64,000 nucleotides of DNA from a virus. Positions 1-63,445 of this stretch are shown here, in pieces. The DNA is taken from UHGV virus genome UHGV-0064883, one strand, 5' to 3'. Under the pieces are notes generated by a model. It did not search any database. It was not told where the DNA came from and saw nothing but the letters and a program-made list of their open reading frames with translations. How positions within the stretch are numbered: position 1 is the first letter of the stretch; the number at the start of each line of letters is the position of its first letter. Both the position numbers and the translations under genes were made by a program.

Positions 1-515
1 TCCCTGGCCCAAATCGGCGGGAAGACAGCCGTGGACGACCCTCACCACTACTCCCCCGGAACGATCGAATACGGAAAAGTAGTATTAAACCTCGCCTGCC
101 TGACAGCCGTCCTTCTGGAAACGTGGGAAGCCCAGCGTTCATTGAGCGGAGGGGAAAAATCCAAAGACCGGAAACCGGACGACGCGGAATCCGCAGCAGG
201 CCCATTCGGAGCTTGACCCGTACCCCCCCCGCATACAATACCGCATAGCCTACACCTCGACATGATATATGCTTTCGGCGCAGGACAACGAAAGCCTCCG
301 GTGGAGGCTGATTCAGATGAATGTAATCGTCGTCTGGTTTTACCTCCTGCGGCTCCGGGATTCCGGAATCTGGAACAAACACCTGCAGCAGAAGCTGGAC
401 GACACGGAACTCGTCTTTTTAATCATCAAATGGTACATGTGGTACATGCCCGTTCTGTTCCCCGCCTGATTGCGGGTGGCGAGATGAGATAAAATGATGG
501 GCCGCGCGGAAAAAA

Positions 516-551
516 CGTGTAAAACGTGTAAAACATGTAAAATATGTGCAG
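516..551. repeat. Four tandem 9-bp units (CGTGTAAAA x2, CATGTAAAA, TATGTGCAG) inside the duplicated unit; second copy at 2185-2220
   Basis: Read directly from the sequence. An adjacent GGTACATGT/GGTACATGC pair lies at 440-458. Confidence 0.8.
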
Positions 552-655
552 TGCATGTATGCAGGGGGGACATATCGCGCGCAGGCGCGGATGCGTAAAG
601 GCATGCGGCCCTACCCCCCCCTATGAAAGTAAATAAATAAAGAAAAAAATCGGAA

Positions 656-1411
656 ATGCACGCCTATTTGCTCTACACACCGGGGGAAATGCTGGAAGGC
701 GAAGACGAACTTACCGCACTGGGCTACCATGTCCATCCTTTTTTGGGCAATAATGATACGTCCGGCCTCCGGAACAAAGTCAAACACATTCCCAGCCTGG
801 GGCATTCCGCGTCCTATTTATCAGACGGACTGGGCTACAACTGGTGCGGCCACGTCCATGCGCTCCGCGCCAACTTTGCAACCATGCTGGAAACTTACAT
901 GGATGCGGACGACCTTACTATATATGGAGAGTCGGACTGCGTGCCCGCGCCTTATCCCCCTGTGTCCGCCGACGATATTTCCTGTGTTTGTCAAGAAGCG
1001 GTTTCCCGGCATCCTGAAATCGGCATCATCCGTCTGTACCGCCGCGCCACACTATTTAACGAGCCTACCTGGTGGAACCATGCGCCCCTTGAGATTGTCC
1101 CGCTGAAAAAGGCGGCCAGAATCTCCAACATTCCTTTTACGAAATATTACTGTCAAACCCACGCCCTGATTATCCGCAGGCACGTCCGCCAAACGGTCAT
1201 CGACGCCATGCGGGATTATTATTTGCCCATTGACGTGCTCCTATCTTATTTGTCCCAGATTGGGACCGTGCCCGTGTGGCACACCAGCATCAACCTAATG
1301 CTTCAACGCCCCCACAGCACGGGAAAGAGGCTGGCGGACTGGCAGCGCAAACATTCTGTTCCGGCAGCGGACTATTGGCGCGACAGGCCCGGACTGACTG
1401 GAAAAAGGTAG
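656..1411 (+). CDS. Hypothetical protein (251 aa), possibly a divergent GT25-like glycosyltransferase; repeat copy A
   Basis: ATG-initiated ORF. GYNWCGHVHALRANFA...DADDLTIYGESD loosely resembles the G-AWGC-SH-AL...(I/L)EDD core of the two GT25 paralogues at 37411 and 38486. The resemblance is weak. Confidence 0.55.
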   Translation: MHAYLLYTPGEMLEGEDELTALGYHVHPFLGNNDTSGLRNKVKHIPSLGHSASYLSDGLGYNWCGHVHALRANFATMLETYMDADDLTIYGESDCVPAPYPPVSADDISCVCQEAVSRHPEIGIIRLYRRATLFNEPTWWNHAPLEIVPLKKAARISNIPFTKYYCQTHALIIRRHVRQTVIDAMRDYYLPIDVLLSYLSQIGTVPVWHTSINLMLQRPHSTGKRLADWQRKHSVPAADYWRDRPGLTGKR

Positions 1412-1420
1412 GTGCACAAA

Positions 1421-1437
1421 TTTGCAATCATTGCAAA
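1421..1437. promoter_or_regulatory. 17-bp palindrome TTTGCAATCATTGCAAA (copy in repeat A)
   Basis: Perfect inverted repeat 10 nt after the stop at 1411. Confidence 0.8.
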
Positions 1438-2324
1438 TTTTCCTTTTCCCCTCTTTTTTACTCTTCCCGCCTGTCCCGATTGCCGGAATCCCCCAGTAGT
1501 GAGTTCCGCGCCTGCTGGGTTTTCAAAAATTCTTTCCAGTAGTGCTCATACGGCCTGTTCGGCTGCGACCGGATAATTTCTCTGCAAATCCGCGCATTTT
1601 TCAGCAGGCTTTCCATGCCGGAAATCATTGCGGTGTCTGGATGCTCTTCTGTCATATCTGCGGGAGATTTCCCTGGCCCAAATCGGCGGGAAGACAGCCG
1701 TGGACGACCCTCACCACTACTCCCCCGGAACGATCGAATACGGAAAAGTAGTATTAAACCTCGCCTGCCTGACAGCCGTCCTTCTGGAAACGTGGGAAGC
1801 CCAGCGTTCATTGAGCGGAGGGGAAAAATCCAAAGACCGGAAACCGGACGACGCGGAATCCGCAGCAGGCCCATTCGGAGCTTGACCCGTACCCCCCCCG
1901 CATACAATACCGCATAGCCTACACCTCGACATGATATATGCTTTCGGCGCAGGACAACGAAAGCCTCCGGTGGAGGCTGATTCAGATGAATGTAATCGTC
2001 GTCTGGTTTTACCTCCTGCGGCTCCGGGATTCCGGAATCTGGAACAAACACCTGCAGCAGAAGCTGGACGACACGGAACTCGTCTTTTTAATCATCAAAT
2101 GGTACATGTGGTACATGCCCGTTCTGTTCCCCGCCTGATTGCGGGTGGCGAGATGAGATAAAATGATGGGCCGCGCGGAAAAAACGTGTAAAACGTGTAA
2201 AACATGTAAAATATGTGCAGTGCATGTATGCAGGGGGGACATATCGCGCGCAGGCGCGGATGCGTAAAGGCATGCGGCCCTACCCCCCCCTATGAAAGTA
2301 AATAAATAAAGAAAAAAATCGGAA

Positions 2325-3080
2325 ATGCACGCCTATTTGCTCTACACACCGGGGGAAATGCTGGAAGGCGAAGACGAACTTACCGCACTGGGCTACCATG
2401 TCCATCCTTTTTTGGGCAATAATGATACGTCCGGCCTCCGGAACAAAGTCAAACACATTCCCAGCCTGGGGCATTCCGCGTCCTATTTATCAGACGGACT
2501 GGGCTACAACTGGTGCGGCCACGTCCATGCGCTCCGCGCCAACTTTGCAACCATGCTGGAAACTTACATGGATGCGGACGACCTTACTATATATGGAGAG
2601 TCGGACTGCGTGCCCGCGCCTTATCCCCCTGTGTCCGCCGACGATATTTCCTGTGTTTGTCAAGAAGCGGTTTCCCGGCATCCTGAAATCGGCATCATCC
2701 GTCTGTACCGCCGCGCCACACTATTTAACGAGCCTACCTGGTGGAACCATGCGCCCCTTGAGATTGTCCCGCTGAAAAAGGCGGCCAGAATCTCCAACAT
2801 TCCTTTTACGAAATATTACTGTCAAACCCACGCCCTGATTATCCGCAGGCACGTCCGCCAAACGGTCATCGACGCCATGCGGGATTATTATTTGCCCATT
2901 GACGTGCTCCTATCTTATTTGTCCCAGATTGGGACCGTGCCCGTGTGGCACACCAGCATCAACCTAATGCTTCAACGCCCCCACAGCACGGGAAAGAGGC
3001 TGGCGGACTGGCAGCGCAAACATTCTGTTCCGGCAGCGGACTATTGGCGCGACAGGCCCGGACTGACTGGAAAAAGGTAG
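2325..3080 (+). CDS. Identical second copy of the 251-aa protein; repeat copy B
   Basis: Identical translation to 656..1411. Confidence 0.55.
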   Translation: MHAYLLYTPGEMLEGEDELTALGYHVHPFLGNNDTSGLRNKVKHIPSLGHSASYLSDGLGYNWCGHVHALRANFATMLETYMDADDLTIYGESDCVPAPYPPVSADDISCVCQEAVSRHPEIGIIRLYRRATLFNEPTWWNHAPLEIVPLKKAARISNIPFTKYYCQTHALIIRRHVRQTVIDAMRDYYLPIDVLLSYLSQIGTVPVWHTSINLMLQRPHSTGKRLADWQRKHSVPAADYWRDRPGLTGKR

Positions 3081-3089
3081 GTGCACAAA

Positions 3090-3106
3090 TTTGCAATCAT
3101 TGCAAA
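3090..3106. promoter_or_regulatory. 17-bp palindrome TTTGCAATCATTGCAAA (copy in repeat B)
   Basis: Identical to 1421-1437. Confidence 0.8.
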
Positions 3107-3126
3107 TTTTCCTTTTCCCCTCTTTT

Positions 3127-3324
3127 TTACTCTTCCCGCCTGTCCCGATTGCCGGAATCCCCCAGTAGTGAGTTCCGCGCCTGCTGGGTTTTCAAAAATT
3201 CTTTCCAGTAGTGCTCATACGGCCTGTTCGGCTGCGACCGGATAATTTCTCTGCAAATCCGCGCATTTTTCAGCAGGCTTTCCATGCCGGAAATCATTGC
3301 GGTGTCTGGATGCTCTTCTGTCAT
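3127..3324 (-). CDS. Small hypothetical protein (65 aa) from an ATG at 3324; same sequence in copy A at 1458..1655
   Basis: Coding-like codon usage, MTEEHPDTAMISGMESLLKNARICREIIRSQPNRPYEHYWKEFLK... It is convergent with the 251-aa gene across the palindrome at 3090. Confidence 0.3.
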   Translation of the reverse strand: MTEEHPDTAMISGMESLLKNARICREIIRSQPNRPYEHYWKEFLKTQQARNSLLGDSGNRDRREE

Positions 3325-3380
3325 ATCTGCGGGAGATTTTAATAAAAAAAGTTCATTTAAGAAAGATTTTTTCTCACTTT

Positions 3381-3416
3381 TTTCTTGCAATTCTAATCAT
3401 TGAATGATAAATTGAC
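3381..3416 (+). promoter_or_regulatory. Promoter-like box TTCTTGCAAT-N20-TAAATTGA
   Basis: Matches the TTG/N19-20/TAnnTT consensus seen about 10 times in the window. Followed by the leader AAAACCGAATTAGAAAGACCAAAACAATG, which is identical to the leader at 53686-53715. Confidence 0.55.
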
Positions 3417-3485
3417 TTTGTTGACGGGAGGTAAGGGACCAACCGAAAGCACAAAACAAAAAACCGAATTAGAAAGACCAAAACA

Positions 3486-3743
3486 ATGAACGCTGATAAA
3501 ACCTACAATGTAAGAGAAATCTTCACCACGAATTACTACGAAATCGTTGTCGCCGGAGAAGCGGTGAAGAATTATGATGAAGAAGGAAGAACTTACAACT
3601 TTTATTGCCCGGTGTGGGAAGCCCACGGCACGAGACATGGATTTGTCAGCGGCAATGTCTCCGAAGAGGATAAAGATTTTGATGATGTAAGAATCATCCT
3701 CGAAAAAGCGGAAGAATACAACTTGGTTGTAGGTTGGGACTAA
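3486..3743 (+). CDS. Small hypothetical protein (85 aa)
   Basis: ATG ORF behind the conserved promoter/leader cassette. Confidence 0.6.
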   Translation: MNADKTYNVREIFTTNYYEIVVAGEAVKNYDEEGRTYNFYCPVWEAHGTRHGFVSGNVSEEDKDFDDVRIILEKAEEYNLVVGWD

Positions 3744-3797
3744 AACAGCAAACGCCATTACGCTGAATAAATCAAAAACTGGAAAGGACAAAAGACA

Positions 3798-4121
3798 ATG
3801 AGCGCAGACAAAATCATCATCACGGAAGACGGCGAAGAAATCAATCTGACTACTCTTGAACGCGAGTTCGGCAGCTATCAGTTTGAGGGCAAGACCTACT
3901 ATGCCACGCGTCAAATGGAGTTTACCAACCGCGAGTTCCTGGGATGTTTCGAGGAAGCGGAAGAAGGAGAAGAATACGTCTCCGAATATTCCGCCCCCGG
4001 ATATGACGAAAACGGAAACCCCGTGGAAATCTTCATGATGTTCACGGAAATAAAAGGCGAAGAGGTGGACCCGGAAAACCTTAACCGGTTCCAGGACGCC
4101 GACCGCGTTGAAGTCCGCTAA
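3798..4121 (+). CDS. Small acidic hypothetical protein (107 aa)
   Basis: ORF with a GGAAAGGA purine-rich stretch upstream. Confidence 0.55.
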   Translation: MSADKIIITEDGEEINLTTLEREFGSYQFEGKTYYATRQMEFTNREFLGCFEEAEEGEEYVSEYSAPGYDENGNPVEIFMMFTEIKGEEVDPENLNRFQDADRVEVR

Positions 4122-4150
4122 TTATTTTACACCACAAAAACTACTCCGAT

Positions 4151-4726
4151 ATGAACATTCTCATTTCCGTCGAAACCTTTGAATCCATCGCCGCTTCCGT
4201 TCTGGAAGCCATACGCCCCATTACGGAATGGAGCTACCAGGGAACGCCCCAGTATTACGCTGATGACATTTCCTTTTTCGCCTATGATTCCAGATTGGAC
4301 GATGCCGAGCTTTCCACCGAGGCGGATTCCCTCGCCATCTACTTTGACACGGCGGGCGTAAAGGAATCTGTTGTTGACCGGATTTACAGCGCCATTGTTG
4401 ATGAGTTTTCCCGCCGTGGAATCCGTCTGACCCGTTCCGGGGATATCGACGGCGGCAGTCAGGGACTGTTGTACGATGTCAGCCTCATGGCCGCCCGGAA
4501 AGTGCCGAAAACGGTCGGGGAGTTCGTCAGCTGGGTGCAGGCGGATTATCGCCTTCCCGATAAGCCCGCCGCCGTGAAAAAGGCGGCCGAACTGATGAAA
4601 GTAAAAGAAATAACCGTATGGGAATGGATGAAAGGAGCGCGGCAGGTATCTCCCTCCATGCTCCTGCTTATGGAATTTATCGCTTCGATATATGCCCCGG
4701 CGGAGCGTCCCGGTATTTCCGACTGA
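4151..4726 (+). CDS. Hypothetical protein (191 aa)
   Basis: ORF followed by the hairpin terminator at 4751. Confidence 0.55.
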   Translation: MNILISVETFESIAASVLEAIRPITEWSYQGTPQYYADDISFFAYDSRLDDAELSTEADSLAIYFDTAGVKESVVDRIYSAIVDEFSRRGIRLTRSGDIDGGSQGLLYDVSLMAARKVPKTVGEFVSWVQADYRLPDKPAAVKKAAELMKVKEITVWEWMKGARQVSPSMLLLMEFIASIYAPAERPGISD

Positions 4727-4750
4727 AACGGAAATAATTCAGCCGCCCCC

Positions 4751-4795
4751 GATATGAGGGCGGCTGATTAAAGCCTTTTTGCTTATCTGGATGCC
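4751..4795. terminator. Possible bidirectional intrinsic terminator between convergent genes
   Basis: Stem CAGCCGCCC/GGGCGGCTG with a 9-nt loop, then ..GCCTTTTTGC. Confidence 0.5.
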
Positions 4796-5007
4796 GCCGC
4801 CGCACCGATGCCCATCAGGACGACGGCAATAAAGTAGATAAGGGCAATGCCGATGTTGATGATAAATATTGCCATTATCATGTTGGATATTTTACTGCAC
4901 ACCCGTATCAGCTGGTCAAGTCTGCTGACAAGAAGATAGGTGTCCTGCGGTTGTAGTCTGATGTTAGGTTCCATGTTGTCTATGGGTGGGGGTTGTCTGT
5001 CCGGCAA
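4783..5007 (-). CDS. Possible small membrane protein (up to 74 aa; start uncertain)
   Basis: Minus-strand ORF with a hydrophobic segment IMAIFIINIGIALIYFIAVVLMGIGAAAA. Confidence 0.25.
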   Translation of the reverse strand: MPDRQPPPIDNMEPNIRLQPQDTYLLVSRLDQLIRVCSKISNMIMAIFIINIGIALIYFIAVVLMGIGAAAASR

Positions 5008-5132
5008 ACGGTTCGCCGGGGTAGCTCTATGTGCTGGCCGGCTGCGTTATTTGTCAACCATATTCCACATTTCTTCCCCCGTATCGGCATGTTTTTTCTT
5101 TCTTTTCCGCCCGGAAGCCCTATGTTGGCGGC

Positions 5133-5540
5133 ATGATTAGTCTTCTCGGCATTTTTGATGCTCCGCCGGATTGGAGCAAGGGCACTATTTACTGCATTGG
5201 GCAAAAATCCGATAGTTGGAGCAAGCCCGATTCCTACCGCCTTTCCGACATCCCGGAACAGCACCGGGAAGCGCTCGCGTCCATTGTCAAAGGATTCACC
5301 ATGTTGAGCGACGAGTGGTACTGCACGCAGTTCTGGGCTGCATTCTCCTACCGCATGGAGACAGTGGAATCGGAATCCGGGGAACAGGAATCAACGCGCG
5401 TTCCCGGCATTGCCATCCGCATGGAGTGCCGGCATAAGGACACAGGGGCCTTGAGATTGCTGACCCCTAAAGACAATCCGGCCCTGTGGCTCACCGACAG
5501 CGCGTCAATGGCGTTGTACTCGGCTCTGTGCGACGATTGA
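5133..5540 (+). CDS. Hypothetical protein (135 aa from first ATG; the ORF opens with GTG at 5031)
   Basis: ORF track entry 5031..5540; first in-frame ATG at 5133. Confidence 0.45.
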   Translation: MISLLGIFDAPPDWSKGTIYCIGQKSDSWSKPDSYRLSDIPEQHREALASIVKGFTMLSDEWYCTQFWAAFSYRMETVESESGEQESTRVPGIAIRMECRHKDTGALRLLTPKDNPALWLTDSASMALYSALCDD

Positions 5541-5557
5541 TTACGTCTTTCTGCGAA

Positions 5558-5574
5558 TTTGCAATCATTGCAAA
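5558..5574. promoter_or_regulatory. 17-bp palindrome TTTGCAATCATTGCAAA followed by a T7 run
   Basis: 18 nt after the stop at 5540 and upstream of the sulfation operon. Confidence 0.8.
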
Positions 5575-5624
5575 TTTTTTTCGCACTCTCATGAGTGCGT
5601 GGATTGAAACTGCAACACCAGCCT

Positions 5625-6290
5625 ATGAGCGTTTTTACCTATCCGGTCGAGGGCCTTCGCCGCGTGCTGATTCCGCAGAAATGCGGCTGGACGCTAGCCT
5701 GGGATTCCCTCCCCCGCTGGAACGGTCGGGTGGTGATTGACTCCAATGACTACCCCGCGAAAAATCTGGACTGCATGTTTGTCAGGGAGCCGGTGGCCCG
5801 GTTCATGTCCGCTTTCCGGAACAAGATAGAGTTCGGGCCGCAGTCCTACCCCAAAAACGCCAACGGTCAGTTCAACGTCTGGTCCGGCATCCAATGGGTT
5901 GCCTGTGTGTGCGGCATCCCCCCGGACCTGGTGCAGAAGCAGGTTACTGTGTCCCTGATGCTGGACGTGTTGGAGGACATCATCAAAAAAAAACCGAGGG
6001 CGGCGCAATACAACCACGCCGTACTTGACCTGCACTGGTCCCCGCAGGTCTATCATGTGGCCCCCGGCCATATTCCGGAACTGCTCATTGACCCCCGGAA
6101 CGATTTTTCCGTCCTGGACAGATTAAAAATTGACTACTCTACGCACAATCACAATAATACCAGCCGTTATGGAGGCTACCAGCCTACACCGGAAGAGGTC
6201 GCACGCATCAAGGCCCTGTATGCCGAGGATGTAGCACTTTACGCCAGATACCAGCATGATTACGCCCTTCGCCAGTTACCCGCCCAGTGA
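5625..6290 (+). CDS. Sulfotransferase, PF03567-like (Sulfotransfer_2 family)
   Basis: IPQKCGWT matches the 5'-PSB PAPS-binding motif (P-K-x-G-x-T). MFVREPVARFMSAFRNK matches the 3'-PB motif (V-R-d-P-x-x-R-x-x-S-a-Y/F-r-n-K). Start taken at the first ATG, 5625; the ORF opens at GTG 5595. Confidence 0.7.
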   Translation: MSVFTYPVEGLRRVLIPQKCGWTLAWDSLPRWNGRVVIDSNDYPAKNLDCMFVREPVARFMSAFRNKIEFGPQSYPKNANGQFNVWSGIQWVACVCGIPPDLVQKQVTVSLMLDVLEDIIKKKPRAAQYNHAVLDLHWSPQVYHVAPGHIPELLIDPRNDFSVLDRLKIDYSTHNHNNTSRYGGYQPTPEEVARIKALYAEDVALYARYQHDYALRQLPAQ

Positions 6291-7107
6291 CGCCCCGGAG
6301 TTCATCAAATACTCCCACCACCTGATTGACCTCGCCTTGAGAAAAGCCCGGCGTCCGGCCATCCTCTGTTCCTACGGCAAGGATTCCGGCGTTGTCCTGC
6401 ATTTGCTCTCCCAGCACGTCGATTTATCCCGCATCGACGTTATTTACATTGATTCCACTTTTGAATTCCCGGCGTTTTACAAGCACATTGCCGGGATGAA
6501 AGCCTTTTTCGGCATCCGGCACGGCGGCCCTCATGACGTGCACTGCCAGAATAACCAGGCCATCCGTTCCGGCATGTCCTACGACAACACCCCGGTGCTC
6601 AAGTTGACGCAGACCCTGAAAACCGACGTATTGGTGCAGGTGCTGAAAGAGCGAAATATTGACTTTCTGTTCACCGGCATCCGGCGCGACGAAGAGGGTT
6701 CCCGTGCCAAGGAACGCTATTTCTCCTACCGGGAAGCCGACGGCACGTTTGACCCGGTAAGCAACCGCCCCGGATTCTATCCGCTGGACGGGCTGGATGT
6801 GCAGTCCCCCGGTTCCGGGCATTACCGCGTCAATATCCTTCTGGGCTGGTCGGAGCGGGACGTGTGGGAATACACGGAAAAGCACCTGCTTCCCGTCTGC
6901 CCGCTGTACCTTGCCAAAGACGGAAAGCGCTACCGCTCCCTTGGAGACGAGCCGGTGACTACTCCGGTGGATTCCGACGCTGACAGCATCGACAAAATCA
7001 TCAAGGAGCTGTACCATACCAGCGTGCCGGAACGGGCATGCCGGAAATCACAGGACAATTCCGCGCCGTACGCAATGGAGATGCTGCGGCGCAAGGGATT
7101 CTGCTAA
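6256..7107 (+). CDS. cysD: Sulfate adenylyltransferase subunit 2 (CysD; PAPS-reductase/PP-loop family)
   Basis: LCSYGKDSGVVLHLL (PP-loop SxGxDS), FTGIRRDEEGSRAKERYFSYRE, LGWSERDVWEYTEKHLLPVCPLY and RSLGDEPVTTPV align closely with the bacterial CysD blocks [49 protein letters not shown]...VPLY and RTLGCWPLTGAV. Confidence 0.85.
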   Translation: MITPFASYPPSDAPEFIKYSHHLIDLALRKARRPAILCSYGKDSGVVLHLLSQHVDLSRIDVIYIDSTFEFPAFYKHIAGMKAFFGIRHGGPHDVHCQNNQAIRSGMSYDNTPVLKLTQTLKTDVLVQVLKERNIDFLFTGIRRDEEGSRAKERYFSYREADGTFDPVSNRPGFYPLDGLDVQSPGSGHYRVNILLGWSERDVWEYTEKHLLPVCPLYLAKDGKRYRSLGDEPVTTPVDSDADSIDKIIKELYHTSVPERACRKSQDNSAPYAMEMLRRKGFC

Positions 7108-7137
7108 CAGTTCCATTTTTTCCTTTCCGCTCTTGCC

Positions 7138-7860
7138 ATGATACCGGATGACCCGTTCACCCAGCCGGAAAAAAAACCTGAAAAGCCGGGAGGCATCACG
7201 CAAATCTGGATAGGCGGAGAAGATAATATACCGCAGGAAATGCGGGAATGGATGTCCGGGGTGCGGGCCTACTGCAACCAGTTCAACCTTCCGTACCGCT
7301 GTTTGAACGGGAGGCAATGCAAGGCTCTGCTGGATGAGTTCGGCATCCCGTTCAATCCTACCGGGGGCATCATGAGCCTGACCGACATGGCGCGGGTGTG
7401 TGCCCTGAAAAAATGGGGCGGCTGGTATCTGGACACAGACGTAAAAATCCAGCGTCCGGCAGCCTTCCATGATTACTCGGTTTCTGTCTGCGAACAGGAG
7501 CCTTCTACTGTTTTTTACAATGCCATCACCTACGGCTGGATGTACAATCACGGAGTGCTTTATGCCTCCGGGGACGATTCCTGCCTGTTCCTGGATGCCA
7601 TGCTGGACGCGTGCCGGGAGACGTACAAGACAGTCCATGCTTCCGATTCCGGGTGGGGGCTGGAAAGCACCGTTCAGAATATGGTGCATCATGACCGCCA
7701 ATGGGTAGGCTGGCATCAAGGACTGCCAAAGGGCGTTTGCGATTGCGGCAATCCGTCCAGCATGATTAACCATGTGCTTTATGGGACCTGGTACAATAGC
7801 GCACACATGACTCCCGGCATCAAGGACGCGGAAACTTATTCAAAGGTTTCCGATTTGTAG
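7138..7860 (+). CDS. Glycosyltransferase, GT32-like (Och1/TcdA-type DXD sugar transferase)
   Basis: WIGGE...LTDMARVCALKKWGGWYLDTDV matches the GT32 signature (sD..R...L.k.GG.Y.D.D). Confidence 0.7.
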   Translation: MIPDDPFTQPEKKPEKPGGITQIWIGGEDNIPQEMREWMSGVRAYCNQFNLPYRCLNGRQCKALLDEFGIPFNPTGGIMSLTDMARVCALKKWGGWYLDTDVKIQRPAAFHDYSVSVCEQEPSTVFYNAITYGWMYNHGVLYASGDDSCLFLDAMLDACRETYKTVHASDSGWGLESTVQNMVHHDRQWVGWHQGLPKGVCDCGNPSSMINHVLYGTWYNSAHMTPGIKDAETYSKVSDL

Positions 7861-7909
7861 TCCGGAATAATTTTTGCAAAAAAGAAAAAACAATGGTAAT
7901 ACGTAGCGC

Positions 7910-8761
7910 ATGCCACGTGAAAAAATCATCATTGCCGTGTGCGGAATCCCTGACACGGGAAAAAGCACTTTTATCGCCAACGCCGCGAAACACCTGAACG
8001 GAATGGAGGTCCAGCCGGATGCCCTGTGCGTAGAGCAGCAGACCGGGAAAACCATTGCAACCTCATTCATCACCACCTGGGGCGAAGAGTGGCAGCGGGA
8101 CGGAAAAACCTGCGATTTGGTCTTTGTGGACTGCCCCGGCCATGTGCAGTTCCTTCCGGAGATTGTCGCGGGCTTGTCTGCGGCCCATGCCTACATTGTC
8201 ATCCATGACGCTTCCCGCATTGAGGCGAGCCAGGCATATGCCCGGATGCTGGAAGATGTCGCAGGCGTGCTTGGCGTGCCTCGGCTCGCCACCCTCTACA
8301 GCCATTGCGACAGCACCGGGGAATACTGCTACAACGTGGGTGTTGACAACCGGCTTCCGGGAATTGCCGAAAGGGTTATCCGGCGTGCCCTGGCGGGCGG
8401 CAAAGATAAGCTGGTTCATCCCACGGCATCCTGGCTTGGCTACATCCGGCAGGAGCCGTTCGATACGCCTGATGCCCGGCACAGGGTGTCCGTCATCTGG
8501 CTTCCCTGCGCTTCCCGGCTCACTCCGGTTTCCCTTCTCCGGGCAGAGCTTCCCGACCGAACGGTCGAACTCGGAGAGGCTGGCTCCGTTCTAGACCCCA
8601 TCCCCAGGGAAAGCGACTTCCAGACCGCCCCATTGATACGGCACATTTACCTGCAATTCCCTGTCCGGTATCTGGACCCCGTGCGCTTCCTGATTTGCGA
8701 CTCGGAGCTGGGAACGGTCGGAGTCGGAACAGTAACCCCGTGGGAAACCCAAATGTTATGA
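7910..8761 (+). CDS. CysN/EF-Tu-like GTPase (283 aa; truncated, divergent putative sulfate adenylyltransferase subunit 1)
   Basis: G1 CGIPDTGKST and G3 DCPGHVQF (DxPGH) match translation-factor/CysN GTPases. No canonical NKxD motif. Adjacent to cysD. Its stop overlaps the next start (ATGA). Confidence 0.55.
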   Translation: MPREKIIIAVCGIPDTGKSTFIANAAKHLNGMEVQPDALCVEQQTGKTIATSFITTWGEEWQRDGKTCDLVFVDCPGHVQFLPEIVAGLSAAHAYIVIHDASRIEASQAYARMLEDVAGVLGVPRLATLYSHCDSTGEYCYNVGVDNRLPGIAERVIRRALAGGKDKLVHPTASWLGYIRQEPFDTPDARHRVSVIWLPCASRLTPVSLLRAELPDRTVELGEAGSVLDPIPRESDFQTAPLIRHIYLQFPVRYLDPVRFLICDSELGTVGVGTVTPWETQML

Positions 8762-8979
8762 GCAACGTAGCTATCCCATACCAGCCCCACGACTGCCCCG
8801 TCTGCGGAAAGAACCTCTGCTACAGCGCCGGAAAGGACGGCTGCTATTATTCCTGCCCGGAATGCAGGTATTCCGTCCAGTCCGGTGCGACCCTGCAAGA
8901 AGCACAAAGGCATCTTTTCATCTTTGCGGCGGCAGTCCTCAAAAACCAGAACACGCAACACGACACCATCACCCAATGA
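8758..8979 (+). CDS. Small zinc-ribbon protein (73 aa)
   Basis: CPVCGKNLCYSAGKDGCYYSCPECRY contains two CxxC pairs. ATGA overlap with the upstream gene and with cysC downstream. Confidence 0.5.
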   Translation: MSNVAIPYQPHDCPVCGKNLCYSAGKDGCYYSCPECRYSVQSGATLQEAQRHLFIFAAAVLKNQNTQHDTITQ

Positions 8980-9479
8980 TTATTCTTCTCACCGGCGAAA
9001 GCGGCGTCGGAAAAACGTCTGTGGCAAAAACCCTGATGAACCGGCATCCGGGCATCCTTCTCGACGGCGACGACATGCGGGACGGATTGAACAGCGACCT
9101 TGGGTTTTCCGACCAGGACATCATGGAGAACATGCGCCGGGCGGCGCACATAGCCGTACTGCTGCATGACCAGCTTCCGGAAGACCGGCGCACGGTTTAC
9201 ATCACCTGCATTGCCCCGCTGCTGGCCGGAAGGAATCTGGTGCATGAGCTGTGCGGTTCCCGGTTGTGGGAGATTCGCATCCAGTATGATTACCGGGCTT
9301 CCGACGACGTAAAAGGGTTGTACAAGGCGGGAACCCCCATGCGGGCCTACGAAGAGTACCCCAGCGAAACGTTGCTGCTCCCCCGCCGGATAAACCGCGT
9401 GTACCGGTACTACAACGATACCGTGTGCGCTCTGGCCGCCAAAATAGAAAAGCTGTGGCCTGCGGACAAAACCGCTTGA
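8976..9479 (+). CDS. cysC: Adenylylsulfate (APS) kinase CysC
   Basis: ILLTGESGVGKTSVAKTL (P-loop), LLDGDDMRDGLNSDLGFSDQDIMENMRRAAHIA and KGLYKAGTPMRAYEEYP match the APS-kinase motifs TGLSGSGKST, LDGDNvRhGLnkDLgFsdeDR.ENiRR and KGLYkkAr.g....FTGi. Confidence 0.9.
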   Translation: MIILLTGESGVGKTSVAKTLMNRHPGILLDGDDMRDGLNSDLGFSDQDIMENMRRAAHIAVLLHDQLPEDRRTVYITCIAPLLAGRNLVHELCGSRLWEIRIQYDYRASDDVKGLYKAGTPMRAYEEYPSETLLLPRRINRVYRYYNDTVCALAAKIEKLWPADKTA

Positions 9480-9547
9480 CAAAGGCGTATCCGTCCCTGT
9501 ACATTACCCCTGTTTTGGAGCATTCCTGACAGGATGTTTCTAGGTTT

Positions 9548-9588
9548 CTCCCTTCCCTTGGCGCTCTAAGGGGAGGGAGTTTTTTTTG
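9548..9588 (+). terminator. Rho-independent terminator closing the sulfation operon
   Basis: Stem CTCCCTTCCC...GGGGAGGGAG followed by T8. Confidence 0.85.
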
Positions 9589-9615
9589 CGCTGATGTCCG
9601 TATCTTCCGCCCCAA

Positions 9616-9632
9616 TTTGCAATGATTGCAAA
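9616..9632. promoter_or_regulatory. 17-bp palindrome, centre-G variant TTTGCAATGATTGCAAA, followed by T7
   Basis: Read directly from the sequence. Confidence 0.8.
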
Positions 9633-9654
9633 TTTTTTTCGGCAATCCTGAATT

Positions 9655-9724
9655 TTTATCTTGCAATTTTTAAAAAGAAAGGTATGATGAAGGCATCAAA
9701 GGGAGGAAAAAGCGAATCTCCCTT
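9655..9724 (+). promoter_or_regulatory. Promoter-like box ATCTTGCAAT-N19-TATGATGA plus leader hairpin CATCAAAGGGAG-GAAAAAGCGAAT-CTCCCT
   Basis: Same cassette architecture as at 51501, 53611, 62631 and 63491. Confidence 0.55.
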
Positions 9725-9757
9725 TTAAAGAAAAAACTGAAACATACCTGCACTACA

Positions 9758-9928
9758 ATGGAAAAAAGCAATAAAAAGTATCGAGTAAAAAACGTTGCGG
9801 ATTCTTACGCCATTATGGACGCGTCCCAAAAGGTACTGGTCGTATTTTCCTCTGCCGCTCTGGGCAAGGATAAAGCCAAGGTTCTGGCGAAATCATACTG
9901 CGACATGCTGAACACTCTCCTGGATTAG
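9758..9928 (+). CDS. Small hypothetical protein (56 aa; below the ORF-track size cutoff)
   Basis: ATG ORF MEKSNKKYRVKNVADSYAIMDASQKVLVVFSSAALGKDKAKVLAKSYCDMLNTLLD directly behind the conserved promoter/leader cassette. Confidence 0.45.
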   Translation: MEKSNKKYRVKNVADSYAIMDASQKVLVVFSSAALGKDKAKVLAKSYCDMLNTLLD

Positions 9929-9981
9929 TAACGTGATTGCCTGCGGGGGCGCAGTAATAGGCGCCTCCGCTCTTCTCCACT

Positions 9982-9990
9982 CCCCCCCCC
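9982..9990. repeat. C9 homopolymer 7 nt upstream of the ATG at 9997
   Basis: tccccccccctaaaaaatg. Confidence 0.9.
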
Positions 9991-9996
9991 TAAAAA

Positions 9997-10638
9997 ATGA
10001 AACGTAAGCTTGGTCCGGTAGCGTTCATACTGGAAACGACACGCGCCTATCAACGGATAAGAAATACCATTTCCAGCCTATGTCTTGAGGGTACGCCCGT
10101 TTACCATAAGCGCAGTAAAAAAGGCTATTGCGTCCTTGCGGGTATTCCGCGGATAGGAGGAACATTCGACTTGCACCTGTACCGGTATGACACCGAGAAA
10201 AAAGGGGAAGAAGTTAAAAGTCTCTACAATATAACCCCGGAGCAATTTGACCTCTACGGCTACCAGTACGTGGAATTGACCTCTGCAAAATCTCCAACAA
10301 TAAGTTTTTCCAAGCTGCCTGTCCCCGGAAGGGAAGTGGACCCGGAAGGAAGGAGTAGATTTGCCTGCACCCGGCTTAAAGAATGGTCCAACCCGTGGTC
10401 AGAGTTCAAATGCTACCCCCAGGAAATCTGCTGGATGTATCTGGACGAGAGCAAAGACCCGGACGATGATACGGAGGTAAGTGTAGGCTATCCGTGGAAC
10501 GCTACTTCCAGGCATCCTCGCTACCCGTTCCAGAGGATGAAATGGTCCACTTTTGTCATACAGTACCGTATATTTTATGAATTTCACGGCCTCATAGACG
10601 GCCCGCATCCAACCTGTGAATACCCTGTAAACGAATGA
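9997..10638 (+). CDS. Hypothetical protein (213 aa)
   Basis: ORF. ATGA overlap with the next gene. Confidence 0.55.
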   Translation: MKRKLGPVAFILETTRAYQRIRNTISSLCLEGTPVYHKRSKKGYCVLAGIPRIGGTFDLHLYRYDTEKKGEEVKSLYNITPEQFDLYGYQYVELTSAKSPTISFSKLPVPGREVDPEGRSRFACTRLKEWSNPWSEFKCYPQEICWMYLDESKDPDDDTEVSVGYPWNATSRHPRYPFQRMKWSTFVIQYRIFYEFHGLIDGPHPTCEYPVNE

Positions 10639-11780
10639 AGACAACCACTGCAACGAAAGACTGCCTGACAATGGCAGCCAATAAACTGACGCAATCCACC
10701 ACTCCGACACTATCAGCTAAAGAGGCGAAAGCGCTGGCTAAGGCGGGAGTCGTCCCGGAATTAAAATGGGGCGGCGATTCGTTCATGTATTTCCCCGGCA
10801 TCGATATTGACCCGGTAAACCTCCTGATGCCGCTGACCGCCGTGAACCCGGTGACGGCTCCCGGAGTGGAACCCAGGTACTGGCTGATGGGTGTGACAGT
10901 ACACGGAGGCTACGCTATGGCCACCGACGCTTCCTCTGCCGCCGCCATTTTCACCGGGACCGACATTGCGGAGGGGATATACTACAATTCCGAACGGTCG
11001 CGCTACCTTGACGCCTGCCCTCTGAGCACCCATTCCACTGGCGAAAGCGGCGTTCAAATCCATACCATGCTGAAAACGCACCTGGATAACTCCGCAAGAG
11101 CTAAAAAAATCGTACACCGGCTTTCCATGCGGCATCTGGCCCAAATGAAACAGCTGGCAACCTACAGCTACCGGGAGGAATCGGAACCGGAAAAAGTGAA
11201 GTTCCCCCTTGTGAGCATCCTCGACAGATATTACGATTCCCGGAGGCTGGCCACCATAGCCGACATTATTGCGTACAGCATTCCCGCCCACTGCCTTAAT
11301 TCCGGAAAGTACCGCATTTTCATGACCGCCGCCGATTCCACGGCCAACATTCCGCTGACATTCAAAGTGTGGGACGACACCCCGGAAGGAAAGCCCAAGC
11401 TCTTGTGTGTGGCGGCCGTCATGCCGCTGCTGGAATCCGGCAGGAAAAAAGGGGCGGCAGACCATATCGCATGGACGTTCCGGGAAAACCCGGAAGACAC
11501 GGCAAATGCCGTGGACCTGCCGGAACGGGGCATGGGAACGCCTGTTGCGTACCCGGTCCCGAATGGAAACGGCGCAATCTGCGTACAGATTCCGGAAGGG
11601 GCCTTCCTACATGCGGCTCCGGGCCAGTCCTGCACAATGGTGTACATGACCAGACCGCAGGCGCAGCTTGCCCTTGCTGCCCTGTCTGCCGCCTTGCAGG
11701 ATAAGCCCGCCATTGTCAACGGGAAGGAAAACGGGGACAATCCGGCCCCGCCAGCCCGCACACGGGTATCCCGCCGATAA
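10635..11780 (+). CDS. Hypothetical protein (381 aa)
   Basis: ORF. No recognisable motifs and no Walker box. Confidence 0.55.
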   Translation: MKTTTATKDCLTMAANKLTQSTTPTLSAKEAKALAKAGVVPELKWGGDSFMYFPGIDIDPVNLLMPLTAVNPVTAPGVEPRYWLMGVTVHGGYAMATDASSAAAIFTGTDIAEGIYYNSERSRYLDACPLSTHSTGESGVQIHTMLKTHLDNSARAKKIVHRLSMRHLAQMKQLATYSYREESEPEKVKFPLVSILDRYYDSRRLATIADIIAYSIPAHCLNSGKYRIFMTAADSTANIPLTFKVWDDTPEGKPKLLCVAAVMPLLESGRKKGAADHIAWTFRENPEDTANAVDLPERGMGTPVAYPVPNGNGAICVQIPEGAFLHAAPGQSCTMVYMTRPQAQLALAALSAALQDKPAIVNGKENGDNPAPPARTRVSRR

Positions 11781-11814
11781 TTGACTGTACCCGGATAAAA
11801 AAACCTTTTTGAAA

Positions 11815-11831
11815 TTTGCAATCATTGCAAA
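11815..11831. promoter_or_regulatory. 17-bp palindrome TTTGCAATCATTGCAAA
   Basis: 35 nt after the stop at 11780. Confidence 0.8.
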
Positions 11832-11873
11832 TTTCGGAACCAACAACACCAACCATAGCAACTCAATATTAAC

Positions 11874-12269
11874 ATGATTACAAAAGACACCTGCCGAACG
11901 CTGGAAAGCCTGCTGGAAGCATTGCCTTCCTCCAAGGACCGCCGCCGGGCCAATGTGTGGTATCAATCCGCCCTGTCCGCCGCAGCCACCATCCACCGGG
12001 AATGCCCCTATCTGGCTGTGCAGATAGCCATCGAGGATAAAAGGCCCGTGTGCCACATCAATGTGCTTAGCCTGAAACCCATGAACGAAGGATTGGCCAG
12101 AGACACCAAAACCGTAACGGAAACGGTCGGCTATCTGCAGATTGACCTGACTTGCCGCTTCCAGGTGACGGACCGGGGGCTGGATGATGACGAAGACCCG
12201 GAAGACCAGTACAACCAGGCCGAAGAACTGCTTGATTTTACCACCGACATCATTAACACGTATGCCTAA
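11874..12269 (+). CDS. Hypothetical protein (131 aa)
   Basis: ORF. Confidence 0.5.
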   Translation: MITKDTCRTLESLLEALPSSKDRRRANVWYQSALSAAATIHRECPYLAVQIAIEDKRPVCHINVLSLKPMNEGLARDTKTVTETVGYLQIDLTCRFQVTDRGLDDDEDPEDQYNQAEELLDFTTDIINTYA

Positions 12270-12828
12270 AAATCACTATAAACCGGGTACAGCGGTACTA
12301 GTCCGGGGAATTGTCGTAGGAGAATATAACCCTGATGATGGTAATGCTTCCGTTTCCGTAAGGCTTAATACCCATATGGATTATGGGCGTAATATACTGT
12401 TTTCCCCGGATAAGCTGGAAAAGGTTAAACCTGCTTCCACCAGGAGATTCCGGAAAGGGGACAAGGTACGCCTTATTTACAGAGGCCGAAAGGCCCCGGA
12501 AGGGTTGCGGTATGATAAAATCTACACTGTGACGGAGAATGAAACCGCATATGGCCTGTGCCGCCTTACTGATGGCGTTGCAAATTATTCCTGCCTGGAA
12601 TTAGTTGAAGCAGCTGAAGAATCCTACGACATTCCTTTCCATGAGGCGGTGCGCCTGATGGGCGAAGGAAAAATACTGGAACGGATACGCAATGGTAGTA
12701 CTCTTCAATACCGGCTGGTTGACGGGAATCCCCAATTTTCAAATGCCGACGTAGATGGAACCCCAGAATGGAGGTCCATAATATTTTGGGGAGACGACAT
12801 CAACGCCAAATGGAAAATTGTCGAATAA
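12262..12828 (+). CDS. Hypothetical protein (188 aa from the ATG at 12262)
   Basis: ORF. Its start overlaps the previous stop. Confidence 0.5.
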   Translation: MPKNHYKPGTAVLVRGIVVGEYNPDDGNASVSVRLNTHMDYGRNILFSPDKLEKVKPASTRRFRKGDKVRLIYRGRKAPEGLRYDKIYTVTENETAYGLCRLTDGVANYSCLELVEAAEESYDIPFHEAVRLMGEGKILERIRNGSTLQYRLVDGNPQFSNADVDGTPEWRSIIFWGDDINAKWKIVE

Positions 12829-12839
12829 CCCTGAATACA

Positions 12840-13190
12840 ATGGATAAAGAAAATTGCAAACTGGAAACAAAGATGCCTGCCGCTAATTCAGCCCCGGAAC
12901 GCCCCACACGGTATTTGCGCCCTATCGGGGACAAAGTGCTTGTCCGGCTGAAAGAGCGTGAATCCCGCATAGGCTCTATCATTATCCCCGATTCCGCCCA
13001 AAAGGAAAATTGCTGGGGGGAAATCGTGGCTCTGGGGACTGCCGTTGACGCGGATATCTGCCACCTGGACCTGCACGACGTTGTCTATATCAGCCCCGCG
13101 CAGGGCACTTATCTTGTTTCCGGACAAAAGGACTTGATTCTTATCGAAGCCGGGCGCATTATGGCCAAGCTGCTTCCTGACGAGGATTAA
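12840..13190 (+). CDS. groES: Co-chaperonin GroES/Hsp10 homologue (phage-encoded)
   Basis: LRPIGDKVLVRLKERESRIGSIIIPDSAQKENCWGEIVALGTAV...DVVYISPAQGTYLVSGQKDLILIEAGRIMAKL follows the GroES pattern LrPLgDRVLVk..e.e.ktaGGI.lPdsAkEKp..GeVvAvG... Confidence 0.8.
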   Translation: MDKENCKLETKMPAANSAPERPTRYLRPIGDKVLVRLKERESRIGSIIIPDSAQKENCWGEIVALGTAVDADICHLDLHDVVYISPAQGTYLVSGQKDLILIEAGRIMAKLLPDED

Positions 13191-14392: not shown

Positions 14393-15781
14393 ATGAGATT
14401 TCTTCCCTCTCTTTTTAGGCGGAAAGGCCACGAACAGCGATTGTCCGTAGCATGGAACAGTCTGGATTCCCGCCAACGGTCGGTCCTCATGGAACTCGCG
14501 TCCTATCTCGGCAACGGCATTGACGGGGACCGGACAAACCTCCGGTATATTGACCTGGTGAACCATGTCCGGGTTGACCCTCTGGACAGCTATGAAAAGT
14601 ACATCAAAACAGGGACCGGCCAGGTATGGGCGACGTTTGTAGCCTGCAATCTGGTGGCTAATGTTTTGGTGTCAACTACGTTCCAGGTTGTCAAATCCGG
14701 CTCCGATACGCCCCTTGACAGCACACGCCACCCGCTGGCAAAGCTAATCGCGCAGCCGAATGAGTGGGACTCGTGGGAGGACTTAATCTATCAGTGGGTG
14801 TTCCACATCAAACTGACCGGCAACGCGTACTGGTTAAAAAACCAGGTCAACGGATACGGGCAGCCCCTGGAACTGATTCCCCTGCTTCCGCAGTACGTCA
14901 AAATCATTCCTGACCAGACTTCCAGAATCAAGGAATACCAATACCAGGTCAATGGCCTGTGCATTACATACGCCCCGGAAGAAATTATCCATTTCCGGAG
15001 GCCCCACCCCAATTCCTTCATCCTTGGTCTGGGAGATATTGAGCCGTCAAAGTCATTGTATGAATCCTTTATTACCGGGGACGAGCTTCAAAAGCGGGTG
15101 TACTCCAATGGGGCCGTCATCAGCGGCGTATTGAGCAATGATTCCGATTTGCTCTCACAGGAGGAATTTGACCATGCCGTGGAGAGCTTCCGCTCCAAAT
15201 ACGAGGGGAAGAAAAACGCGGGAAAAACGGCGTTCCTTTCCGGCAAATGGAACTATACCCGGCTCGGAATGACCAACAGCGAGCTTCAAAGCCTTGAGCG
15301 GGACAAAACCAGCGTTGAGCAGATATTCATCAATCACGGGGTTCCCCTTTCCGTTGCGGGCATCAAGGACGCGGCCAACTACGCCACATCCAAGCAGGAC
15401 GCTATCGCGTTCCGGAAACAGGCATGCCTTCCGCTGGCCGATATTCTTGTAGGCAAATTGAACTCGGAAAAAGGGCTGACACCCGCCTACCGGGATAAAA
15501 CCCTGAAAATCGACTATAACATGTCTGGCCTCGTGGACATTGAGCAGATGGTGAAGGAAAACCAGCCGTTGCTGGAATCCGGGGCGCTTACTCCGAACGA
15601 ACTCCGGGAAAAGTGCGGCCTGTCCAGAGTTGACGACCCTTATCTTGACCAGTATTTCATCAAGTCGAATCTGGTTCCTATGGAGCTGTCCGGGATGGGC
15701 ATGGGAGAGTCGCTGGAAGAAAGCGCCCGAACGGTCGTGACCGGATTCGCCAAATCCCGTTGCGGCGGCCACCCGCATTGA
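14393..15781 (+). CDS. Portal protein (HK97/SPP1-like; assigned by position and overall composition)
   Basis: 462-aa ORF immediately upstream of the head-morphogenesis gene. Size and position are typical of portal proteins. No motif was computed. Confidence 0.55.
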   Translation: MRFLPSLFRRKGHEQRLSVAWNSLDSRQRSVLMELASYLGNGIDGDRTNLRYIDLVNHVRVDPLDSYEKYIKTGTGQVWATFVACNLVANVLVSTTFQVVKSGSDTPLDSTRHPLAKLIAQPNEWDSWEDLIYQWVFHIKLTGNAYWLKNQVNGYGQPLELIPLLPQYVKIIPDQTSRIKEYQYQVNGLCITYAPEEIIHFRRPHPNSFILGLGDIEPSKSLYESFITGDELQKRVYSNGAVISGVLSNDSDLLSQEEFDHAVESFRSKYEGKKNAGKTAFLSGKWNYTRLGMTNSELQSLERDKTSVEQIFINHGVPLSVAGIKDAANYATSKQDAIAFRKQACLPLADILVGKLNSEKGLTPAYRDKTLKIDYNMSGLVDIEQMVKENQPLLESGALTPNELREKCGLSRVDDPYLDQYFIKSNLVPMELSGMGMGESLEESARTVVTGFAKSRCGGHPH

Positions 15782-16466: not shown

Positions 16467-16483
16467 TTTGCAATCATTGCAAA
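16467..16483. promoter_or_regulatory. 17-bp palindrome TTTGCAATCATTGCAAA
   Basis: Between the stop at 16443 and the start at 16494. Confidence 0.8.
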
Positions 16484-18734: not shown

Positions 18735-19448
18735 ACTTTGTCTGGCTCAACAACCAATTCGGCAACCAGATATGGCAGATTGCCGTGGCAACGTTTTTTT
18801 TTTGGAAGAGGGAACTTTGCCGCGATAACCTCCTATGCCGTGCCGCTGAAAGGAATTGGCTTCCATGCATTTCTGCATGTGCCTTGTTTTCCGTTCAACC
18901 GGGAGACAAGCGCCTTAGCGCCGCAAACGGTTTACGTCAAAAGAGGAACGCCCCTGCCTCCCGGCACGAACTCTATCATTGACGGGCAGTTGCAGGACGT
19001 AGCCTGGCTGCGCGGATTGAATATCCAGCAACTATTGACGTTTGATGGCATCGATAACGATTTTCGCATTGTCCATGTCCGGGGCGGCGATTTTTTTACC
19101 AGCAAGCCGCACAGGCCCTACGTCAAGAACCGGGACTGGTATCTTAAAGCCATTGACGCTGTGCCCGATATGCGGAAGCACCTGGATAAAACAATATTGC
19201 TTACGAACGACAAAAAATACGCGGGGAAAATCCTTCCCGAATTTCCCATACTGGACGTGCCGCCTTTGACTGCGTTCCGGTTGATGATGGGCTGCCGCTC
19301 TTTGGTCATATCCGCATCAACCTTTAGCTGGTGGGCAGGGTATCTTAACCCTTCGGCACAGATTGCCTGCCCTTCCCGGTGGTGCGGCGCCGGGGAAGAT
19401 TCGGAAAAATACTACGGGCACAATCGCCTGATGTTCATACCCGATTAG
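18731..19448 (+). pseudogene. GT11 alpha-1,2-fucosyltransferase-like gene interrupted by a +1 frameshift inside a T10 tract (18794-18803); possibly phase-variable
   Basis: N-terminal frame gives MNFVWLNNQFGNQIWQIAVATFFF (GT11 motif I, GGLGNQMFQYAfA). C-terminal frame 18738..19448 gives IVHVRGGDFF (HxRRGDY) and ISASTFSWWAGYL (motif III, STFSWWAAYL). Deleting one T would restore a roughly 239-aa ORF. The start overlaps the upstream stop (ATGA). Confidence 0.7.
18794..18803. repeat. T10 homopolymer that splits the GT11 reading frame
   Basis: acg tttttttttt gg. Frame 2 runs upstream and frame 0 downstream. Confidence 0.9.
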
Positions 19449-19464: not shown

Positions 19465-19481
19465 TTTGCAATGATTGCAAA
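19465..19481. promoter_or_regulatory. 17-bp palindrome, centre-G variant TTTGCAATGATTGCAAA
   Basis: 17 nt after the stop at 19448. Confidence 0.8.
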
Positions 19482-23501: not shown

Positions 23502-23518
23502 TTTGCAATCATTGCAAA
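23502..23518. promoter_or_regulatory. 17-bp palindrome TTTGCAATCATTGCAAA upstream of the capsid gene
   Basis: 4 nt after the stop at 23498. Confidence 0.8.
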
Positions 23519-63440: not shown

Positions 63441-63445
63441 CTCCA

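Follow-up and report, generated by a model that had tools for sequence, protein, structure and literature searches.

Spontaneous tandem duplications are a familiar feature of phage genomes, with lambda, T4 rII, and P22 providing the classical cases. Direct repeats are also generated by de Bruijn assemblers, which leave k-mer-long copies at the contig ends of circular genomes that are used as a marker of circularity and completeness (Benler et al., PMC8008677). The locus described here touches upon both. It lies at the start of the virus genome UHGV-0064883, of which a stretch of 64,000 nucleotides (hereafter the window) was analysed, and consists of a 1669-bp unit, designated unit A, that stands twice head to tail at positions 1-3338 and carries a gene for a putative glycosyltransferase of 251 amino acids (aa). 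The sequence to the left of the unit is denoted X and the unique sequence to its right B. In our reading, to which a probability of about 0.6 is given, unit A has undergone a recent and strain-specific tandem duplication to at least two copies by illegitimate recombination, on which a loop walked by the assembler has been superimposed.

The tandem repeat and its junctions

The two copies of unit A, 1-1669 and 1670-3338, were aligned with 0 mismatches, in agreement with the preliminary description of this DNA, which had reported an exact 1669-bp tandem duplication from position 1. The period extends for one further base (T at 3339) and then collapses, the second copy being followed by the unique sequence B. 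An exact repeat of this length is not attributable to chance. No third copy of the unit was found within 3339-64000, where only a short genome-wide palindrome recurs. A 92,307-bp metaSPAdes-type contig in ENA (ERZ1689905 NODE_30_length_92307_cov_9.89) has the window as its opening 64 kb; base 1 is the same in both, locus L004 (contig 1-13080) being identical to window 1-13080. The earlier remark that the window begins on a unit boundary is borne out by this correspondence.

The left flank enters the unit as ..CCAAGATAATC/TCCCTGG, the first copy enters the second as ..GGGAGATT/TCCCTGG, and the second copy leaves for B as ..GGGAGATT/TTAATAAAAAAAG, the last of these junctions (GAGATT/TTAATAAAAAAAG) being the same in all single-copy relatives. 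The novel head-to-tail junction, GAGATT/TCCCTGG at 1660..1680, has a microhomology of 1 nt (T). After GAGATTT, the continuation into B reads TAATAAAA, whereas the continuation into a further copy of A would read CCCTGG; the base before A is C in the relatives (..ATAATC/TCCCTGG) and T at the A/A junction. The A/A junction was found in ERZ1689905, in ERZ1689583 (internally, with X and B flanks), and in ERZ1690112 (mid-contig). It must be present in the reads, because a microhomology of 1 nt leaves no shared k-mer from which a false join could be made and an assembler writes out only those paths that its graph contains. Judged from these sequences, the junction is very probably real and specific to this strain. 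Site-specific recombination between similar core sites at both boundaries was considered and rejected, the boundary sequences sharing only one base.

Approximately 27 assemblies of related strains, 93-98% identical to this one in unit A, were compared, originating from IMG/VR, from JGI and ENA metagenomes, and from MEGAHIT, SPAdes, Logan, and other pipelines. About 22 of these ~27 carry the unit once, as X-A-B, with identical boundary sequences. The A/A junction is absent from these ~22 assemblies and, by pattern search, from all IMG/VR contigs, in which the pattern of the A end returned three already known contigs only. A 96%-identical homologue (P0001) is again single-copy, and a truncated product of 56 aa, used as a tracer of the junction, led to known contigs and one contig-end truncation only. 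The nearest strain is 98.2% identical in A, compared with 100% between the two copies here; the copies being more alike than the nearest strain, the duplication is either younger than any sampled strain split or continually homogenised.

The most probable origin is a recent illegitimate event with 1-nt microhomology, either an unequal exchange or a template switch, between replicating sister genomes, which would yield the arrangement X-A-A-B. Once formed, the identical copies may be expanded or collapsed as an array by homologous recombination, the phage encoding RecA-like and RuvC-like proteins. One breakpoint lies within a gene and the other separates an open reading frame (ORF) from its upstream region, as would be expected had the illegitimate event been accidental. 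We infer this mechanism of origin, a true copy number of at least two that is possibly heterogeneous, and any effect on the dosage of the glycosyltransferase.

Assembly of the contig and alternative explanations

The far end of the contig (locus L005) also consists of A-A plus the shared T. The contig hence reads A-A-[B..X]-A-A, in which B..X measures 85,630 bp and the A-A(+T) overlap of 3,339 bp occupies contig 1-3339 and 88,969-92,307. The contig starts with TCCCTGG, at the first base common to the paths from X into A and from A into A, and ends with GAGATTT, at the last base common to the paths from A into A and from A into B. In the de Bruijn graph, the contig thus begins and ends at the branch vertices where a self-loop meets a circular path. 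A SPAdes path seeded on a long unique edge is extended through a loop once per side and stops at a used edge. In the present case, SPAdes would have been seeded on the 85.6-kb unique edge, walked the loop once at each end, and stopped at both branch vertices; this traversal results in a contig of the form A-A-[B..X]-A-A, in a window that starts at the unit boundary, and in exactly two copies being written. The assembled copy number and the alignment of the unit to the window start are therefore products of assembly, and the phage genome itself assembles as a circle of ~87.3 kb.

These results divide the possibilities that had been raised in the preliminary description. An assembly artefact explains the boundary at the window start, the copy count, and the A-A doublet at the far end, but not the A/A junction itself. 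A real recent duplication explains the junction, which is found in several assemblies while the relatives are single-copy, but not the copy number, which was the choice of the assembler. A terminal or concatemeric phage repeat is not supported, since the copies are adjacent and X-A-A-B is internal in another assembly. Inspection of the sequence upstream of the window had also been suggested; the contig holds none before window position 1, but circular closure places the 5' part of a phosphatase-like gene there.

Sibling assemblies of the same strain bear directly on the loop. Over 8,837 bp, ERZ1689597 NODE_38_length_87353 matches the window with 0 mismatches; its first base is window 3285, exactly 55 nt short of the branch. 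The length (87,353 = 54 + 85,630 + 1,669) is that of a circle holding one copy, closed by a k-mer overlap and opened at a branch vertex, and a break at the exact branch vertex of an 87-kb circle implies that the loop was also present in that graph. ERZ1689583 NODE_40_length_88975 reads X-A-A-B mid-contig and measures 88,975 bp against 88,968 bp expected for a two-copy circle (7 nt off). ERZ1690112 NODE_30_length_1658 (L006), with a coverage of 2.3, is one rotated A unit that has the A/A junction mid-contig and is cut only at a C8 tract (613-623); the presence of the junction in the middle of a contig at 2.3x coverage argues that it is not a rare variant. The copy number is 1 in ERZ1689597, 2 (internal) in ERZ1689583, and 2+2 in ERZ1689905, and such disagreement among siblings renders the assembled copy number untrustworthy. 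An X/B deletion junction was seen in no contig examined, and a literature search on the ERZ accessions found nothing relevant.

Several observations weigh against a recent duplication that arose once in this strain. ERZ1689583, ERZ1689597, and ERZ1689905 form one accession block, with coverages of 9.15, 8.82, and 9.89 and contig ranks of NODE_40, 38, and 30, and the three large contigs may stem from repeated runs on a single sample or library and hence not be independent. ERZ1690112 assembled unit A only, without X or B flanks, and A may be more abundant there than a two-copy state implies. Furthermore, two contigs of related strains break at the very end of A: L001 (HMP, IMGVR_UViG_7000000736_000368, 7,617 bp) ends exactly at ..GAGATTT at its base 1, and L015 (OMET01001834.1, 6,738 bp) does so at base 6738, both of which correspond to window 3339. 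They come from unrelated studies, and their strains are sisters neither of this one nor of each other. A one-off duplication does not predict these ends, which hint that the process is recurrent or site-specific, or that the DNA physically ends there; on the simplest reading, the A/A continuation may exist in those samples, the event being recurrent or polymorphic across strains. Length variation in the T-run or A-run found no support as the cause of the two ends, all ~25 sequences reading GAGATTTTAATAAAAAAAG. A companion contig starting at B in HMP sample 7000000736 was not found in IMG/VR.

The two ends raise the possibility, which we regard as very unlikely, that the boundaries of A are programmed sites. 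They would then mark either a fixed DNA end or 1.67-kb terminal repeat of the phage species, or the fixed endpoints of a recurrent amplification of the glycosyltransferase cassette together with its hypervariable control region of homopolymers and 9-bp repeats; the latter, if true, would amount to phase variation of a phage by copy number. In a rival packaging model, a linear virion genome A-B...X-A would have A as its direct terminal repeat (DTR), the A/A junction would stem from end-joined molecules, and the double coverage of A would have produced two copies. Such a model would accommodate the exact identity of the two copies, the ends of L001 and L015 exactly at the A end together with the start of this contig exactly at the A start, the two copies that coverage-based loop resolution would yield, and the assembly of A without flanks in the low-coverage ERZ1690112. 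Nevertheless, a DTR is expected to give an unbranched de Bruijn cycle devoid of A/A k-mers unless the ends are ligated, and yet the junction is covered like A itself (L006, 2.3). The left boundary lies inside a coding gene, ~22 assemblies (three Logan contigs included) pass both boundaries unbroken, and no contig of another strain starts at the A start; comparisons of the large terminase (TerL) led to no assignment to a DTR-type packaging class. A DTR is a poor candidate with a small chance of being correct. The accession block, near-identical coverage, and contig rank shared by the junction-bearing assemblies, which suggest one sample, would be expected if A/A were an amplification or library chimera (e.g., a whole-genome amplification jackpot) spread via replicate runs of one library, as would the absence of the junction from IMG/VR and from every other study compared and the assembly of the same strain with one copy. 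Against such a chimera, the junction survived the removal of low-coverage edges in at least three assemblies at ~9x and stands mid-contig at 2.3x, and the same-base breaks in two unrelated studies (L001 and L015) are unexplained by a chimera in this library. Amplification chimeras are, moreover, mostly inverted and random and not clean direct head-to-tail joins, and we hold this explanation to be quite unlikely.

It is unlikely, too, that A has been amplified to more than two copies in an array A(n), or that it exists as a free 1669-bp circle released by homologous recombination. The sole assembled piece of the phage in ERZ1690112 is a 1,658-bp contig, holding all of A in rotated form and closed through the A/A junction with neither X nor B, as an array or a circle would have it, although the flanks may simply have failed to assemble at 2.3x. 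The RecA-like and RuvC-like recombination genes of the phage have a substrate in such identical copies, and the assembler cannot count copies; on the other hand, exactly two copies are written in two of the three large assemblies, corresponding to a depth of ~2x if SPAdes used coverage, A contains nothing like a replication initiator, and the X/B deletion junction is missing from every contig examined. A tandem duplication of at least two copies, overlaid by the assembler's loop, is retained as the favoured explanation.

Unit A and the 251-aa protein

Unit A opens inside a gene. A gene for a 189-aa LMWPc-like phosphatase (L005 8992-9561, with A beginning at L005 9346) has its last 72 codons at positions 1..216 on the plus strand and its first 118 codons at the far contig end in region X, and the left breakpoint falls after codon 118. 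The gene has a weak Pfam match to LMWPc and belongs to phrog_12429; its 3' fragment is repeated at 1670-1885 (plus strand) as a promoterless, dead duplicate. A related strain (L013, human gut NODE_1092, 23,567 bp) has neither a gene for an 801-aa receptor-binding-like protein nor the phosphatase-like gene and lacks the initial 199 bp of A; from this comparison, the stretch that precedes A is a module that varies between strains. Next in the unit is an ORF of 66 aa on the plus strand (269..469; copy 2, 1938-2138) that is called in every related contig; the identical protein occurs in 156 collection blocks. This ORF and the 251-aa ORF are the intact genes that have been duplicated.

The intergenic region upstream of the 251-aa gene (470..655; copy 2, 2139-2324) contains 9-bp repeats, a G6 run, and a C8 tract. 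The features recorded earlier for each unit were all recovered, including the cluster of AAAACGTGT-type 9-bp tandem repeats at 512-547 and 2181-2216, two C8 tracts at 223-230 and 614-621 (and at the same positions +1669), a 251-aa ORF in each copy, one 17-bp palindrome, and a small minus-strand ORF. The G6 run is at 564-569, likewise repeated at +1669. Between strains, the poly-C at ~223 varies from 7 to 9 nt, the poly-C at ~614 from 6 to 9 nt, and the poly-G at ~561 from <6 to 9 nt, and the 9-bp repeat is present in 1-4 copies; from its sequence, this tract-rich region looks like a contingency-type hypervariable control region. A hairpin between the G-run and the C-run was rejected, the DNA fold being no better than that of shuffled sequence (z = -0.89).

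The 251-aa gene occupies 656..1411 on the plus strand (copy 2, 2325-3080), and just 3' of its stop codon is the palindrome, TTTGCAATCATTGCAAA at 1421-1437 and 3090-3106, which lies in a perfect inverted repeat at 1418-1440. The minus-strand ORF encodes 65 aa (3127..3324 in copy 2; 1458-1655 in copy 1), and its start codon lies within the unit, 14 nt from the right breakpoint; the gene calls put it at 65 aa (3127-3324) in copy 2 but at only 56 aa (1458-1628) in copy 1. Copy 2 of this ORF retains its native AT-rich upstream sequence, whereas copy 1 has the start of unit A in its place. To the right of the duplication, an AT-rich intergenic region (3339..3485, 30% GC) divides the minus-strand ORF from the run of plus-strand genes. 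Reading frames remain open across 1669/1670 on both strands, as had been stated, at 1628-1885 on the plus strand (85 aa) and 1458-2051 on the minus strand (197 aa); they are mechanical only, neither having been called by any gene caller on the source contigs. That A is a mobile element or small replicon was rejected, the unit standing in the same place in all relatives, with an intragenic left boundary and no Rep-like or integrase-like gene.

The palindrome has the general form TTTGCAAT[C/G]ATTGCAAA and has 19 sites in the window where chance would give 0.01, namely 1421-1437, 3090-3106, 5558-5574, 9616-9632, 11815-11831, 16467-16483, 19465-19481, 23502-23518, 29534-29550, 33549-33565, 37341-37357, 40190-40206, 42162-42178, 45136-45152, 51462-51478, 53571-53587, 58763-58779, 62593-62609, and 63446-63462. 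Several copies extend to a perfect 23 nt and many are at or near ORF boundaries, and the 17-bp palindrome is likely to be a phage-wide motif of a regulatory or terminator type. A dispersed repeat of ~100 bp surrounds it at L005 ~2300-2410 (contig ~81.9 kb), between a TAGT-family gene and an 83-aa gene, with related copies near window 37274-37359, 51460-51516, 62590-62688, and 63445-63542. Four independent contigs (ERZ19289441 NODE_149, ERZ1311071 NODE_116, and two from Logan) start or end at most ~100 nt from the copy between the TAGT-family and 83-aa genes, which marks it as a recurrent assembly break point.

The 251-aa protein has no match in Pfam (E <= 0.01) or PHROG. A word-indexed search returned close relatives only, while a full HMMER scan returned 37 remote homologues at ~30% identity with E values down to 7e-15. 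The homologues often form the N-terminal domain of a longer protein, in a few cases together with other glycosyltransferase domains, and none of 27 aligned homologues has a PF01755 match. A motif F-G-E-S-D is conserved in the family, with E92 and D94 invariant and S93 nearly so. Modelling with AlphaFold2 on the homologue alignment gave a pLDDT of 81.7 and a pTM of 0.81, and the best Foldseek matches of the model were Mimivirus R655, human COLGALT1 (GT25), vaccinia H3, and a bacterial beta-1,4-galactosyltransferase, each of GT-A fold, with TM-scores of ~0.5; the Foldseek probability was 1.00 for COLGALT1, Mimivirus R655, and the beta-1,4-galactosyltransferase. On the strength of this model, the protein is predicted to be a putative glycosyltransferase of GT-A fold with an acidic motif for binding of metal and nucleotide sugar.

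The protein had been called GT25-like, a label that stands at the level of the fold, GT25 enzymes being among the best structural matches, but not at that of family membership, for which a match to PF01755 is wanting. It resembles GT25 enzymes, represented by the bacterial LgtB/Lic2B type and human COLGALT1, in its GT-A fold and in an acidic E-x-D motif that follows a beta strand, and the phage itself has two bona fide PF01755 proteins, encoded at 37342-39526. It differs from them in lacking a significant PF01755 match, in its BLASTP E values of 0.17-0.54 to the phage's own GT25 proteins, in TM-scores of only ~0.5, and in a motif that reads E-S-D and not D-x-D or E-D-D. The two PF01755 (Glyco_transf_25) proteins are products of adjacent genes, 37342-38463 and 38486-39526. 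Further glycosyltransferase-like genes are located at 7138-7860 and 18738-19448, bringing the total for the phage to at least five putative glycosyltransferases with the 251-aa ORF included.

The phage and its comparison with known systems

The source of the window is a tailed gut phage, as is evident from the portal, capsid, tape measure, PolA, DnaB, and RecA genes in the window and from TerL in relatives. The portal is encoded at 14393-15781, the major capsid protein at 23629-25335, the tape measure protein at 30346-33534, and a BACON-domain protein at 34390-36870; DnaB, PolA, a helicase, and a RecA/UvsX-like protein are also encoded in the window, and the plus strand carries nearly all genes from 3486 on. 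A block at 5595-9479 contains genes matching Sulfotransfer_2, PAPS_reduct (CysD-like), a DXD glycosyltransferase-like protein, a GTP_EFTU (CysN-like) GTPase, and an APS kinase, a content that suggests phage-encoded synthesis of 3'-phosphoadenosine 5'-phosphosulfate (PAPS) together with a sulfotransferase. A megablast search with window 1-5000 against GenBank phages and PLSDB plasmids gave no match; the exact A-end pattern likewise gave none against GTDB genomes and hence no prophage or host clue.

The large terminase is encoded outside the window, ~10 kb past the RuvC-like gene and far from unit A. It is a protein of 496 aa (phrog_38) encoded at ~72-75 kb of the contig and, in a relative, at L043 10001-11491. 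The TerL gene is not beside the portal gene but ~30 kb upstream of it on the circular map, and between the two are ParB-like and TAGT-family genes, the gene for the 801-aa receptor-binding-like protein, unit A, and the sulfation module. Compared with the PDB, TerL gave a sole, insignificant match (E = 0.65), and against PHROGs it was recognised as 'terminase large subunit' (phrog_38) with no finer class. Its best GenBank matches are ~30% identical and come from diverse phages, not from Ackermannviridae. The 'Flandersviridae' are gut phages of ~85 kb whose TerL groups with Ackermannviridae and which possess a contractile sheath, PolA, DnaB, DnaG, and BACON (PMC8008677). The present phage is similar in its size, its PolA/DnaB/BACON content, and a large block of unknown genes; it differs in that its best GenBank TerL matches are not from Ackermannviridae, and it is therefore not assigned to that family.

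If the reads confirm the tandem duplication, an abundant gut phage would have been caught shortly after the event, with a putative glycosyltransferase gene doubled in a genome that already has several glycosyltransferases and a module for sulfate activation and sulfotransfer. Such duplications are known in phages and their occurrence is unsurprising, so that the finding is a fairly ordinary one unless recurrence with fixed endpoints is confirmed. The case also carries a caution, given that an assembler made a 3.3-kb 'terminal repeat' of two tandem units from a graph loop in a circular phage: estimates of genome size, completeness calls that rely on terminal repeats, and claims of gene dosage drawn from such contigs would be wrong or unsupported.

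Set beside the known systems, the contig resembles the circular-closure overlap of de Bruijn assemblers in that a path closing on itself gives its two ends one sequence, and the sibling NODE_38 has such an overlap in its ordinary form of 54-55 nt, but in the contig itself the overlap is 3,339 bp and not k in length and comprises two loop copies with a non-terminal A/A junction. The direct terminal repeats of the T7 and T5 type are matched by two identical, sharp-edged copies and by some contigs that end exactly at one boundary; in contrast to such repeats, the copies here are adjacent (A-A-B) and joined by a covalent A/A junction, one boundary is intragenic, and most assemblies run through unbroken. 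The classical phage duplications differ from the present one in that short-read metagenome assemblies are its only source. The likeness to them is otherwise close, as kilobase-scale exact copies stand head to tail, the junction has little homology, and the breakpoints ignore genes; in the same manner, one lineage is duplicated while its relatives are single-copy, and the copies are expected to be unstable via homologous recombination.

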